Origin: a virus
IMG/VR virus record: IMGVR_UViG_3300029549_000021
Direction: 5' to 3' (one strand)
Length of the DNA: 35,344 nucleotides
Within the stretch, counting starts at the first letter, position 1. Each line of letters opens with the position of its first letter. The notes under the pieces are model-generated. The model worked only from the letters and a program-made list of their open reading frames with translations, was not told the DNA's origin and did not search any database. The translations under genes were made by a program, and so were the position numbers. Positions 11,813 through 34,866 of this stretch are shown here, in pieces.

Positions 11813-11889
11813 TGGCACCGTTTGCAGGGCTCGAACCTGCCGCTTCCGGTTTTGGAGACCGGTACTCTTCCAACATGAGCTAAAACGGC
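11813..11889 (-). tRNA. trnW: tRNA-Trp (anticodon CCA), 77 nt with encoded CCA end
   Basis: Folded by hand from the minus strand: GCCGTTT TA GCTC ATGTTGGAA GAGT A CCGGT CTCCAAA ACCGG AAGCG GCAGG TTCGAGC CCTGC AAACGGT G CCA. All four stems pair (G1:U72 and G10:U25 are wobbles). U33, A37, GG in the D-loop, the TTCGA T-loop and discriminator G73 are present. The anticodon arm is identical to that of E. coli tRNA-Trp as I remember it. Confidence 0.9.
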
Positions 11890-30566: not shown

Positions 30567-30593
30567 GTGAATTTGTACCTCCTTACTGTATGT

Positions 30594-30608
30594 TCTACTT
30601 TAAGTAGA
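30594..30608. promoter_or_regulatory. Operator-like palindrome O-distal: TCTACTT t AAGTAGA (perfect 7-bp arms)
   Basis: It overlaps the cro stop codon and shares its motif with three sites in the cro-cI intergenic region. Confidence 0.5.
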
Positions 30609-30800
30609 CATATTGGCGAAAAAAATTTGGTCAATCGGAATCCCAACGACCTCACTGATTTTCTTCGCAGTGGCGACTGTGGCATCTTCGGGCGATTGCT
30701 CGATTTTTCGGTATGTATCGCGCGAAATTCCGAGCTTTTCCGCCATTTCACGCTGAGTGAATCCTGCGTACTGGCGGGCTTGCTTTACAGTGAATCCCAA
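30600..30800 (-). CDS. Cro-like XRE-family HTH repressor
   Basis: I prefer the TTG start at 30800 (AGGAGG 8 nt upstream), giving 66 aa. Product: (M)GFTVKQARQYAGFTQREMAEKLGISRDTYRKIEQSPEDATVATAKKISEVVGIPIDQIFF. The ATG at 30845 would lie inside the promoter/operator region. Confidence 0.8.
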   Translation of the reverse strand: MGFTVKQARQYAGFTQREMAEKLGISRDTYRKIEQSPEDATVATAKKISEVVGIPIDQIFFANMST

Positions 30801-30833
30801 ATTATCAACCTCCTTTCGTCTGGGTTCGAGAAT

Positions 30834-30862
30834 ACTATACTCCACTTTTAGTAGAATGTCAA
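30834..30862 (-). promoter_or_regulatory. Early lytic promoter (PR-like) for cro: TTGACA - 17 nt - TATAGT
   Basis: Reverse complement of 30834..30862 is TTGACA ttctactaaaagtggag TATAGT. Confidence 0.6.
30841..30855. promoter_or_regulatory. Operator-like site O1: TCCACTT t TAGTAGA
   Basis: It lies inside the 17-nt spacer of the cro promoter. Confidence 0.5.
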
Positions 30863-30876
30863 GAACTTAAAGTAGA
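30862..30876. promoter_or_regulatory. Operator-like site O2: AGAACTT a AAGTAGA
   Basis: It abuts or overlaps the -35 of the cro promoter. Confidence 0.5.
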
Positions 30877-30893
30877 AAAATTTCAAAAGAATG

Positions 30894-30922
30894 TTGACAA
30901 CGCTCTACTTTTGGTGTAATCT
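30894..30922 (+). promoter_or_regulatory. Repressor promoter (PRM-like): TTGACA, then TGTAAT (15-nt spacer) or TAATCT (17-nt spacer)
   Basis: ttgaca acgctctacttttgg tgtaatct lies upstream of the AAGGAG SD and the TTG start of cI. Confidence 0.5.
30904..30918. promoter_or_regulatory. Operator-like site O3: TCTACTT t TGGTGTA (degenerate right arm)
   Basis: It lies between the -35 and -10 of the cI promoter. Confidence 0.4.
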
Positions 30923-32707: not shown

Positions 32708-33844
32708 ATGAAAAAGAGAACGAACACGGCATTTTGGGTAGAAAAGGAAAAACGCTGGTGCATCGCGGTGCAGAAGAACGGCACCCGCAAGCGCTTTTAC
32801 AGCAGCACGCCGGGCCGATCAGGACAACGGGAAGCAAACGCAAAAGCGGATGCATGGCTTGATGATAGCATCCGGGACGGCAAGAAGAAAGTAGCTGCCC
32901 TCTATGCCCAGTGGGTAGAAGAACTGAAGCTCACCTGCGGCACATCCTATGTTGAGCAGTGCAAAAAATACGGAGATTACTATATTCTGCCTGTCTGTGG
33001 GGACATCCGTATTGACGAGCTGACCGAAGGCGATCTGCAAAAGGCCATCAATATGTCTTTCAAAAAGCGATGCCTTAAAAAGGAGCGTCAGCGTAGGTCA
33101 AGCGACAAGCCTTTGAGCCGCAAGACCATTATGACGATCCGCTCAACGGAGATCAGCTTTTTGAAATGGTGCCGCCGGAACAGGTACAGTACGATGTTCC
33201 CTGAGCTGTCTATCCCGAAGAATGCCCGCATGGGGAAGAAAAAGATTTTACAGCCGACCGCTTTGAAAGTTCTGTTTGATGTGGACACCCGCCTTTACTA
33301 TGGCAAGCTGGTCTTTGACGAGTATATCTATGCCTACCGGTTTGCAGTTGCTACAGGTGTACGCCCCGGTGAACTTGTGGGGCTCTGGTATGGTGACGTC
33401 AAAGGGAACACGGTCAATCTGCGCCGCAGCATCAACAGGTTGGATGAGGAAACCACCGGCAAGAACGAAAACGCCATTCGCTCATTTGACATGGGCGAGG
33501 AAGCCCGTGAGGCCTACGAAGCGCAGGTGGCCTTGCTGAAGGCTTCCGGTATCCCGCTGAACTATACCACCCCTTTGTTCCAGATCCCGAACCAGAGAGC
33601 TTTATTCAAGCGCTGGAAGAAGTACCAGCGTGACAATGGCATTGAGCCTCAGGTCACGCTGTATGAGATGCGGCACACTTTCGTCAGCATTGAATCCGGC
33701 GTATTGACCGACAGCCAGCTGAAGATGCTGGTCGGTCACAGCAAGAACATGGACACTGCCGGAGTGTATCGGCACGAGCTTGACGGTCAGAGGGAAGATC
33801 TTGCTGCCGCTACCACCGCGGCATTCAGGAAGGCTCAAGGGTGA
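32708..33844 (+). CDS. int: Tyrosine integrase (phage integrase family with an N-terminal arm-binding domain)
   Basis: Trimmed to the ATG at 32708 (GGAGGTG 7 nt upstream), giving 378 aa. The N-terminus is MKKRTNTAFWVEKEKRWCIAVQKNGTRKRFYSS... The catalytic region is ...ATGVRPGEL...YEMRHTFVS...LVGHSKNMDTAGVYRH (R, H-x-x-R, H, Y). Confidence 0.9.
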   Translation: MKKRTNTAFWVEKEKRWCIAVQKNGTRKRFYSSTPGRSGQREANAKADAWLDDSIRDGKKKVAALYAQWVEELKLTCGTSYVEQCKKYGDYYILPVCGDIRIDELTEGDLQKAINMSFKKRCLKKERQRRSSDKPLSRKTIMTIRSTEISFLKWCRRNRYSTMFPELSIPKNARMGKKKILQPTALKVLFDVDTRLYYGKLVFDEYIYAYRFAVATGVRPGELVGLWYGDVKGNTVNLRRSINRLDEETTGKNENAIRSFDMGEEAREAYEAQVALLKASGIPLNYTTPLFQIPNQRALFKRWKKYQRDNGIEPQVTLYEMRHTFVSIESGVLTDSQLKMLVGHSKNMDTAGVYRHELDGQREDLAAATTAAFRKAQG

Positions 33845-33848
33845 TTCT

Positions 33849-33872
33849 GGTAACAGTTTTGGTAACACTATT
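33849..33872 (+). repeat. Arm-type direct repeat, copy 1: GGTAACAGTTTTGGTAACACTATT (candidate integrase arm site, P arm)
   Basis: 22 of 24 nt are identical to 34058..34081. Each copy holds two GGTAAC hexamers 11-12 nt apart. Confidence 0.55.
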
Positions 33873-33983
33873 TTTTGTACCCTAGCACAAGTGGATATTT
33901 TGCAAGCCGCACAACAAGCGCAAATGCAAAGTGATAGAGCCATAACGCCTCCTATTTTTGACGTAGCAATATCAAATTTAATT

Positions 33984-34007
33984 GTTCGACTCCCATCGCC
34001 TCCACCA
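33984..34007 (+). other. attP core candidate: 3' end of a tRNA-like gene (T-loop, T-stem 3' strand, acceptor 3' strand, ACCA)
   Basis: G TTCGACT CCCAT CGCCTCC A CCA. The implied acceptor is GGGGGCG/CGCCUCC with G3:U70 and discriminator A, which is alanine identity (tmRNA/ssrA or tRNA-Ala). The 5' T-stem partner is absent (AATTG instead of ATGGG), so this is a fragment rather than a gene. Confidence 0.6.
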
Positions 34008-34009
34008 TG

Positions 34010-34052
34010 AAAAAAGAACGCCATTTCGTTAGGAATTGGCGTTCTTTTCTTT
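34010..34052. terminator. Bidirectional intrinsic terminator next to the attP core
   Basis: aaaaAAGAACGCCA tttcgttaggaat TGGCGTTCTTttcttt has an A-run on the left and a T-run on the right. It would end the Spo0A_C-like gene (minus strand) and, after integration, the reconstituted tRNA/tmRNA (plus strand). Confidence 0.65.
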
Positions 34053-34057
34053 ATCAT

Positions 34058-34081
34058 GGTAACGTTTTTGGTAACACTATT
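34058..34081 (+). repeat. Arm-type direct repeat, copy 2: GGTAACGTTTTTGGTAACACTATT (P' arm)
   Basis: See copy 1. The two copies flank the core, at about 110 nt on the left and about 50 nt on the right. Confidence 0.55.
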
Positions 34082-34087
34082 AAGTTT

Positions 34088-34429
34088 TCAGGCTGCTCTC
34101 ACCAGCGCATTATACAGCATTTCAATGAACTGTACCGCGCTTGGGCATCCGGTCAGCGGATAGCCTGCCAGCTGCTGCACATACTCCGGGTTTGTGAGCC
34201 ATGCACCTTTAGCTGCCCGGCGGACAGCGCTTTGAATCGCTTTTGGCTCACATCTTCTGCGGTCGGCGATAGGGGTATAGATATCTTTCTCCACGGCCTG
34301 CAGGCGGTCTTCCTGCTCACAGACCAGCTCAAGACACTGGCACAGGATACTGTAGGCGCTCAGGTTACGTGTAATGCCCATCGGGCGCAGCAGATCATTG
34401 ACTTGAGTGGACAATTCGGAAACGATCAT
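34088..34429 (-). CDS. Stand-alone Spo0A C-terminal (DNA-binding effector) domain-like protein
   Basis: Track ORF 34088..34456 begins with TTG; I prefer the ATG at 34429, giving 113 aa. ...LRPMGITRNLSAYSILCQCLELVCEQEDRLQAVEKDIYTPIADRRRCEPKAIQSAVRRAAKGAW...CPSAVQFIEMLYNAL parallels the Spo0A_C pattern (GVP..IKGY.YLR.AI......P.....VTK.LYP.IA......T.S.VERAIRHAIE.AW....PTN.EFI). Confidence 0.7.
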   Translation of the reverse strand: MIVSELSTQVNDLLRPMGITRNLSAYSILCQCLELVCEQEDRLQAVEKDIYTPIADRRRCEPKAIQSAVRRAAKGAWLTNPEYVQQLAGYPLTGCPSAVQFIEMLYNALVRAA

Positions 34430-34489
34430 AGTTGACACATCCTTTCTTTGCGTCAACTCTAACCGAAAAACACTTGAAATTTGTTAATT

Positions 34490-34518
34490 GCGTCGATATG
34501 CGTCGTAAAGCGTCGAAA
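34490..34518. promoter_or_regulatory. Three phased 0A-box-like direct repeats: GCGTCGATA / GCGTCGTAA / GCGTCGAAA (exact 10-bp period)
   Basis: The repeats start at 34490, 34500 and 34510, about 60-90 nt upstream of the Spo0A_C-like start. A fourth, degenerate copy (GCGTCAACT) is at 34450. The core GTCGAA compares with the 0A box TGNCGAA. Confidence 0.5.
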
Positions 34519-34523
34519 CACGC

Positions 34524-34567
34524 CAAACAAAAACAGCCCCGAGGAACCGTCAGGCTCCCCGGGGCTG
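34524..34567 (-). terminator. Intrinsic terminator ending the late/lysis operon (minus strand)
   Basis: Minus strand: CAGCCCCG gGGAgcctgacggtTCCt CGGGGCTG TTTTTGTTTGG. It lies about 35 nt after the holin stop. Confidence 0.7.
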
Positions 34568-34599
34568 CTGCTATGTATGGCTATTTTGGGCAGGGCGGC

Positions 34600-34866
34600 T
34601 TACTTTCCCTGTGCCTTCAGCTTGTTGTAGGTCTGGTCTGCCTGAAGGGCTGCGGTGGTGAAGGAGTTGTTCTTCCACCATGCCACCAGCGCGGCCACGG
34701 TGGTGATGCCAGCGGTAACCAGCTGCTCCACGGTCTGGCTCTCGATGGGCAGCACGGGCTTGCCCAGTGCAGACAGCACCTGATTGGTCAGGGCCAGCAG
34801 CAGGCAGGCGGTGCGGGCAATGGTGCCTGCGGAGATGGTGGGTGCGTTGTAGGTGTGTTCGTTCAT
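34600..34866 (-). CDS. Holin (phi LC3 / Phage_holin_1-like)
   Basis: 88 aa with two hydrophobic segments (IARTACLLLALTNQVLSAL and LVTAGITTVAALVAWW). The motif WWKNNSFTTAALQAD is typical of this holin family as I remember it. Confidence 0.7.
   Translation of the reverse strand: MNEHTYNAPTISAGTIARTACLLLALTNQVLSALGKPVLPIESQTVEQLVTAGITTVAALVAWWKNNSFTTAALQADQTYNKLKAQGK

Follow-up and report, generated by a model that had tools for sequence, protein, structure and literature searches.

A stand-alone Spo0A effector-domain gene preceded by a phased array of 0A-box-like repeats in a Lugh-like Faecalibacterium phage

The locus and its protein

The DNA analysed here comes from virus record IMGVR_UViG_3300029549_000021 (35,344 nucleotides; the window). 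It belongs to a Lugh-like temperate Faecalibacterium phage: its DNA and proteins resemble those of Aster, of Lugh and of phage scaffolds from human faeces. The window contains genes for a holin, an integrase and a CI-like repressor. A minus-strand gene at 34088..34429 encodes a protein that consists of Spo0A's C-terminal effector domain (Spo0A_C). Upstream of this gene, at 34490..34519 on the same strand, lie three direct repeats with an exact 10-bp period, which resemble the 0A boxes bound by Spo0A and may form an operator array. Both features had been pointed out in an earlier note on this DNA, and they were analysed by profile, structure and comparative searches.

The open reading frame starts with ATG at 34429, ends with TGA and gives a product of 113 amino acids (aa). 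An alternative reading extended to a TTG codon has 122 aa. The 113-aa reading is preferred because the homologs have 112-115 aa and share the ribosome-binding site (RBS) and the ATG. The earlier description as a stand-alone effector domain of about this length holds at the level of both sequence and structure. The protein matches Pfam Spo0A_C (PF08769) with 67.5 bits (E 1.2e-18; gathering threshold 25 bits), and residues 10-109 cover profile positions 1-104 of 104. A sequence search of the PDB matched only the Spo0A effector domains 1FC3 and 1LQ1 (E ~2-5e-5). The AlphaFold2 model, built with 16 family members, has six helices and a predicted local distance difference test score (pLDDT) of 89.4. 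The top Foldseek matches of this model are Spo0A chains only, with TM-scores (TM) of 0.74-0.83 and root-mean-square deviations of 2.3-3.0 A, and the next match has a TM of 0.26. For the effector-domain structures 1FC3 and 1LQ1 the TM is 0.78-0.83.

No receiver domain was found in the 113-aa protein, as the earlier note had stated: Spo0A_C starts at residue 10, and there is no domain with a phospho-acceptor Asp. The NCBIfam model TIGR02875 (Spo0A equivalog) gives 38.5 bits against an equivalog cut-off of 200 bits, and the match covers only the C-terminal profile positions 147-253 of 262. The protein shares about 21% identity with Spo0A. It is a member of the Spo0A_C domain family and not a Spo0A ortholog. 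The family is annotated as 'unknown function' in PHROGs.

The protein has the same fold as Spo0A of Bacillus and Clostridioides, with a helix-turn-helix at about residues 46-79 (recognition helix KAIQSAVRRAAKGAW), the motif K-x-x-Y-x-x-I-A and, in the next helix, G-Y. Unlike these proteins, it lacks the receiver, and its loop before the last helix is three residues shorter. The recognition helix reads KAIQSAVRR in the phage protein and SRVERAIRH in B. subtilis. Q66, S67 and R70 align with E213, R214 and R217, the presumed base-contacting residues of Spo0A; all three phage residues are invariant in the 16 family members. Thus, R217 is kept as R70, while E213 and R214 are changed to Q and S, and the conservation of DNA-contact residues that the earlier note wanted checked applies to one of three. 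The exact mimicry of Spo0A specificity suggested there is not established, with Q-S-x-x-R in the place of E213-R214-x-x-R217. The most conserved stretch of the protein in the family alignment is VQQLAGYPL, which aligns with the sigma-A-activating region of Spo0A.

The repeats upstream of the gene

On the plus strand the three repeats read GCGTCGATA at 34490, GCGTCGTAA at 34500 and GCGTCGAAA at 34510; on the gene strand they read TTTCGACGC, TTTACGACGC and ATATCGACGC. They lie 62-88 nt upstream of the ATG and are the sole matches to GCGTCGWWA in the 35 kb, where 0.75 are expected. The box form is CGTCGAA, compared with TGTCGAA in the canonical box, and G2, C4 and G5 are kept in all three repeats. 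These are the bases specifically contacted by Spo0A (PMC3485338). With the strict form TGNCGAA none of the three repeats is an exact match, as position 1 is C. A strict scan of the window gave 28 matches versus 20.6 expected, none of them in the array, so that there is no genome-wide enrichment. A criterion drawn from the canonical box and not from the window sequence (xGxCGxx plus at least two of T1, T3, A6 and A7) found 333 single boxes in the window and one phased triple, at 34491-34517. Such a triple is expected 0.01 times per window, and any triple appeared in 2 of 200 simulations.

The degenerate copy that the earlier note placed closer to the gene is also present: GCGTCAACT at 34450 falls in the same 10-bp register as the three repeats. 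A position weight matrix (PWM) scan at a lenient threshold added a weak fourth, distal unit at 34520..34530 (-), TGTTTGGCGTG on the gene strand. This unit is in register, abuts the T-run of a terminator, and has an equivalent, TTTTGGCAT, in L002-type loci. The PWM scan found no other array of at least three units on either strand of the window, and there is no array at the lytic or immunity promoters of the phage.

Conservation of the array

Faecalibacterium phage Aster and 120 IMG/VR contigs contain relatives of the Spo0A_C gene. Upstream regions were gathered from annotated phages, IMG/VR contigs and genomes, for proteins that share between about 50% and 100% identity. Outside a few blocks, the DNA between the genes of these relatives often cannot be aligned. 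Nearly every homologous locus nevertheless has 3-6 direct units at 10-bp spacing between the late terminator and the gene. Among 10 non-redundant upstream regions the core recurs at a spacing of 10 in 23 cases and of 20 in 11 cases, and rarely at 9, 19 or 29. The unit consensus on the gene strand is TATTTCGACRYA, and its flank preferences emerged without being set by the search. The complementary sequence, TRYGTCGAAATA, corresponds to a 0A box and an A-rich 3' flank. Position 1 of the box is C in the three window copies and in about half of the family units. Another 15 genome loci, with protein identities as low as about 58%, show the same architecture. In an alignment of 14 non-redundant regions, conservation peaks at the box cores, the block TTTCGGTTARAGTTG, the RBS and the terminator, and the spacers drift. 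The pattern of the array is kept even where the sequence has diverged; the 0A-like repeats of the earlier note are real, and they are conserved in kind in the relatives.

The association was also searched for from the DNA side. A scan of IMG/VR with TTCGACRY-N4-CGACRY-N4-CGACRY returned 57 stretches. In 35 of these a Spo0A_C gene follows immediately downstream, and another six have this same sequence but are truncated where the contig ends (41 of 57 together). A control pattern with an 11-bp period gave 92 stretches and none near a Spo0A_C gene.

Three observations concern related records. The published reference record of phage FP_Lugh (NC_047912.1; L003/L112) contains the terminator and the phased array at its end (33948-34075) and breaks off 10 nt short of the RBS that precedes the Spo0A_C gene, so that the gene itself is missing from it. 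Six IMG/VR contigs end 25-60 nt past the array, as the Lugh record does. A group of low-GC phages (L215 8900-8962, IMGVR_UViG_3300045988_085922, and 7 related contigs) carries phased boxes (TGTCGGG, TGTCGAA and CGTCGAA) that precede a small ORF whose product has an N-terminus like a signal peptide, and there is no Spo0A_C gene nearby; this ORF is a candidate host-Spo0A-controlled accessory gene.

The wider Spo0A_C family

When 1.84 billion representative proteins were searched with a profile, 2,246 clusters were identified at E < 1e-3, 319 of them below 1e-10 (the ~2,200 family clusters are counted at 50% identity). The best 150 matches are almost all of 100-130 aa, that is, stand-alone domains. 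Some protein clusters of the phage Spo0A_C family have >1,000 metagenomic member sequences. A few proteins contain 3-5 tandem Spo0A_C copies in one chain, such as P0132 (439 aa), P0140 (394 aa) and P0216 (849 aa); these would be ready-made readers of phased box arrays.

Phased boxes were found 80-110 nt upstream of the start codon in five of nine distant stand-alone homolog loci. L087 has TGTCGAATAATGTCGAA, with two perfect TGTCGAA boxes exactly 10 bp apart. L090, which adjoins MarR and ABC-transporter genes in a non-phage setting, has TGTCGAA followed by GGCCGAA and a third unit in register. L085 and L113 have three TCGAA/TCGAG units each, and L114 has three TTTAACG/TTTCACG units with a different core. 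Stand-alone Spo0A_C genes thus seem to be preceded recurrently by a tandem operator, as autoregulation predicts.

Transcription unit and translation signals

The strong intrinsic terminator of the upstream lysis/late operon lies at 34532..34569 (-), with a 17-bp stem (11 G-C pairs) and a T-run, and it is conserved in the relatives. The Holin gene (phrog_263) lies upstream of it at 34600..34866. This terminator insulates the Spo0A_C gene from late transcription. On the other side of the gene, a hairpin at 34012..34048 (inverted repeat I1; arms of 16 nt, 94% complementary), which has a T-run on either strand, is the terminator of the Spo0A_C transcription unit. Terminators on both sides are in line with the separately transcribed gene that the earlier note described. 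No consensus sigma-70 promoter was found by a scan of 33800-34700, and separate transcription is therefore inferred.

The most conserved non-coding block of the family is TTTCGGTTAGAGTTG at 34454..34468 (-), with scores of 8-9 across 14 non-redundant loci and no second copy in the window. The block at 34454-34468 probably holds a -10 element, TAGAGT/TAAAGT, at 34456-34461. No -35 element matching this candidate -10 was found. Conservation is the basis of this assignment. By contrast, the immunity promoter of the phage has a good TTGACA. The lack of a consensus promoter fits activator dependence.

The RBS GAAAGGA is at 34440..34446 (-), 10 nt before the ATG, in alignment columns scored 9, and it is kept at all close homolog loci. 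A 10-bp stem, AGUUGACGCA / UGUGUCAACU, spans 34430..34459 (-; inverted repeat I3), with an RNA fold of -12.4 kcal/mol (z -3.4). Its loop displays the RBS, the stem closes one base ahead of the AUG, and the degenerate copy GCGTCAACT (34450-34458) forms one arm. This hairpin is conserved in the closest subgroup only. It may tune translation locally, and it was rejected as part of a general mechanism, as it is not kept beyond that subgroup.

Control of the gene by the CI repressor was also considered and rejected, since the immunity operators are absent upstream of it and the conserved block TTTCGGTTARAGTTG occurs nowhere else in the window. The probable immunity operator set consists of four ACTTTAAGTAGA-like repeats at window 30590-30920. 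They surround a good TTGACA-17-TAATCT promoter between a divergent CI-like (S24/LexA-type) repressor gene and a small helix-turn-helix gene.

The attachment-site end

A 24-nt tRNA 3'-end fragment, GTTCGACTCCCATCGCCTCCACCA, lies at 33984..34007 (+), and ARAGORN found no whole tRNA at this position. It is the probable core of the phage attachment site (attP), about 80 nt downstream of the Spo0A_C stop codon. Where relatives are integrated, the gene is followed after about 130-140 nt by a complete tRNA-Tyr (L091) or tRNA-Ala (L093). The core is flanked by a direct repeat, TGGTAACAGTTTTGGTAACACTATT (D1; full 25 nt TGGTAACnnTTTTGGTAACACTATT), at 33848..33872 (+), with a second copy, 92% identical, at 34057-34081; the 25-nt repeat contains an internal TGGTAAC duplication. 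This pair probably represents integrase arm-type sites, which are context and not part of the regulator. The tyrosine integrase gene ends at 33844. These features give the region around 33848-34081 the layout of an attP region, with the Spo0A_C gene as the last gene before the attachment site, where the earlier note had placed it. The gene is thus a unit of its own between terminators at the prophage end, which is the structural mark of a prophage accessory gene ('moron') and makes it a candidate for lysogenic conversion.

Two further observations were made on tRNA-related sequences. In phage Aster (L001 2680-2745) the lysis terminator is separated from the Spo0A_C gene by a tRNA-derived attachment-site remnant, which places the gene on the integrase side of the attachment site; the gene and array module is kept and the integration module is exchanged. 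The window also carries a phage-borne tRNA-Trp (CCA) at 11813-11889 (-), among structural and packaging genes.

The host

The Faecalibacterium label is found on 13 of 21 species-representative genome loci that encode a relative, and the remainder come from metagenome bins whose assignment is doubtful. Close relatives of the gene also occur in L091, L092, L095 and L108, from bins labelled Barnesiella and Oxalobacter and thus assigned to Bacteroidota and Proteobacteria. These bins are most likely mis-binned Faecalibacterium phage contigs and not true hosts.

The earlier note supposed a host that carries spo0A, and F. prausnitzii A2-165 is listed with this gene: a curated table (Galperin, preprint) marks it N for spore former and Y for spo0A, and credits it with 86 of 237 sporulation clusters of orthologous groups (COGs). 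Two other sources were set aside as evidence for a host spo0A. The KEGG-based table (PMC7924749) is ambiguous, since K07699 also catches truncated phage homologs, and proteomics names such as 'Spo0A homolog' are uninformative. Sporulation itself is unlikely to be the target of the phage protein, because the hosts are Faecalibacterium and F. prausnitzii A2-165 is a non-spore-former. A sporulation mimic, taken literally, is accordingly improbable for this host.

Proposed mechanism and alternative explanations

Taken together, the comparative data are best read, as the earlier note had suggested, as autoregulation, control by phosphorylated host Spo0A (Spo0A~P), or both. With moderate confidence, we propose that the gene encodes a transcription factor of Spo0A type that has no receiver and binds the array in its own promoter region. 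Cognate-type sites in that region, conserved across the relatives, would be expected of an autoregulated factor. The gene would be transcribed on its own, as an accessory gene at the prophage's attachment-site end, and it may be expressed in the lysogen. Without a receiver, the activity of the protein could not be gated by phosphorylation. Isolated DNA-binding domains of Spo0A do bind legitimate targets without phosphorylation (PMC3485338). The 10-bp-phased repeats would be the operator of the 113-aa protein, whose copies would bind head-to-tail on one helix face, like Spo0A effector domains on tandem 0A boxes. Bound copies would then control the gene's own weak promoter, which has no -35 element. 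With the -10 at 34456-34461, the box centres would lie at about -45, -55 and -65 from the predicted start, which is the position of an activator. Since the array lies just upstream of the predicted -35 region, we infer positive rather than negative feedback, and positive autoregulation is the favoured form. Self-limitation is possible as well, as the in-register proximal copy over -10/+1 could repress at high protein levels. Host Spo0A~P may also bind the boxes, because they keep the bases read by canonical Spo0A, and the phage protein may act on host 0A-type sites.

Several observations weigh against self-binding of the array. Two of the three presumed base-contact residues are altered (E213 to Q66 and R214 to S67; R217 is kept as R70), and the DNA specificity may differ from what the box resemblance implies. 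Relative to the gene, the window boxes point the other way from those of L087 and L090, the homologs with perfect boxes; this orientation call is soft, because the core TCGA is palindromic. The array is not obligatory, because L086 and L109 have the gene in the same position after a terminator and lack boxes, and L106 showed none. Every unit carries a T-run, and intrinsic DNA curvature could contribute. Finally, the PWM was trained on the loci that it describes; only the canonical-box scan of the window, the comparison of box orientation and the 10-bp pattern scan of IMG/VR are independent of it.

A different binder is possible, though on the whole doubtful. The boxes might be read mainly by host Spo0A~P, so that a stationary-phase signal switches the gene, and the phage protein might act elsewhere, e.g., as a competitor at host 0A boxes. 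The altered recognition helix would fit such a division of roles, as it departs from canonical Spo0A at two presumed contact positions. The window boxes retain G2, C4 and G5, the host genus carries spo0A (F. prausnitzii A2-165), and perfect TGTCGAA complements occur in several relatives, e.g., ATTTCGACAC in L036 and AATTCGACAC in L001. Phased 0A boxes also exist in phages with no Spo0A_C gene nearby (L215), and there is a precedent in phi29 and Nf, whose 0A boxes are reported to be bound by host Spo0A (PMC2731898). However, the array is tied to the Spo0A_C gene in 41 of 57 IMG/VR arrays, and position 1 is C in the window copies and about half of the family units, where the canonical box has T. 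Moreover, phased boxes precede unrelated stand-alone homologs in non-phage settings (L090), as autoregulation predicts. The binding of host Spo0A~P and autoregulation are not mutually exclusive.

Less probable is an explanation in which no dedicated protein is involved: the phased T-tracts would bend the DNA and stimulate the weak promoter in the manner of an UP element, and the 0A resemblance would be incidental. Each unit does open with a T-run (consensus TATTT; T in 72-77% at two flank positions not imposed by the search), the phasing is 10 bp, and Aster-type loci show greater regularity in their T4 tracts than in their CGAC cores. However, the C-G-A/G-C core, which bending does not need, is conserved at least as well as the T-runs. 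The perfect TGTCGAA pairs of distant homologs are specific protein sites and not A/T tracts, and the link with a gene of exactly this DNA-binding family would be a coincidence. We consider this explanation improbable.

Another function at the junction, such as integrase or excisionase arm sites, a packaging signal or a late-operon termination region, is very improbable: although the array sits between the lysis cassette and the attachment region, abuts the late terminator and in Aster-type phages lies 100-250 bp from the tRNA-derived attachment remnant, in the window some 480 bp, including the entire gene, separate it from the attP core, its distance to the start codon is constant while attachment position and integrase type vary (tRNA-Tyr, tRNA-Ala, a nearby tmRNA gene, the upstream site of Aster), and such arrays also occur at distant non-phage homologs. 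The arm-site reading of the GCGTCG repeats was rejected on the ground of this distance and because the TGGTAAC... pair (33848, 34057), which flanks the core, is the better candidate.

Comparison with known systems

The geometry of the array can be compared with that of tandem 0A boxes. The abrB operator, TGTCGAATAATGACGAA, has two 0A boxes and a 3-bp spacer, and in 1LQ1 two effector domains are bound to it in tandem. The window repeats are likewise direct repeats of a 7-bp box and a 3-bp spacer, which would place successive proteins on one helical face, and the target-like sites share GTCGAA with those of Bacillus and Clostridioides Spo0A. The L087 sequence TGTCGAATAATGTCGAA is almost identical to TGTCGAATAATGACGAA. 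Unlike the abrB boxes, those of the phage family number 3-6 instead of two, have C or T at position 1 and do not share a strand with the gene. In B. subtilis and C. difficile the promoters of spo0A itself contain 0A boxes as well, and the upstream region of C. difficile spo0A was the strongest binder tested (PMC3485338).

Phages of the phi29/Nf group are likewise reported to carry Spo0A-type sites, which tie phage gene expression to a Spo0A-type regulator (PMC2731898). However, the phi29 sites silence early lytic promoters and replication via the host regulator, whereas the only array of the window precedes a phage-encoded Spo0A-type gene.

Human-gut phages are known to carry spo0A homologs truncated to the effector domain, for which independence of host signals was proposed (Schwartz et al., mBio 2023, PMC10294663), and PF08769 is enriched on mobile elements of gut Firmicutes (Jiang et al. 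2019, PMC6907783). The window gene is of the same kind: gut-phage-encoded, effector domain only and without a receiver. Schwartz et al. treat the proteins only, with no mention of 0A boxes, an upstream array, autoregulation or a position at the attachment-site end, and frame the genes as coming from phages of spore formers; the window family is found in the non-spore-forming Faecalibacterium. A search of the literature found no mention of a box array or autoregulation for these genes. Receiver-less gut-phage spo0A homologs are therefore already published, and the conserved phased operator, the attachment-end placement and the non-sporulating host are added here.

Implications

Faecalibacterium is a dominant, health-associated gut commensal, and Lugh-like prophages are widespread. 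For a gene class that had been catalogued, the array gives a candidate DNA target of 30-60 bp, a predicted binding geometry (head-to-tail on one helical face) and a regulatory logic of autoregulation with a possible input from host Spo0A~P. It also suggests that tandem operators are a general trait of the large and largely unstudied stand-alone Spo0A_C family. A bolder extension, which we regard as unlikely, is that the protein and its array form a self-activating switch in very common Faecalibacterium prophages. Once on, this switch would take over the residual Spo0A regulon of a host that no longer sporulates but retains spo0A and about 86 sporulation-related genes, and would alter the stationary-phase physiology of one of the most abundant commensals of the human gut. 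This would be a form of lysogenic conversion in which the binding sites of a developmental master regulator are hijacked. If the protein does act on host sites, the prophage would be reprogramming a vestigial developmental regulon.

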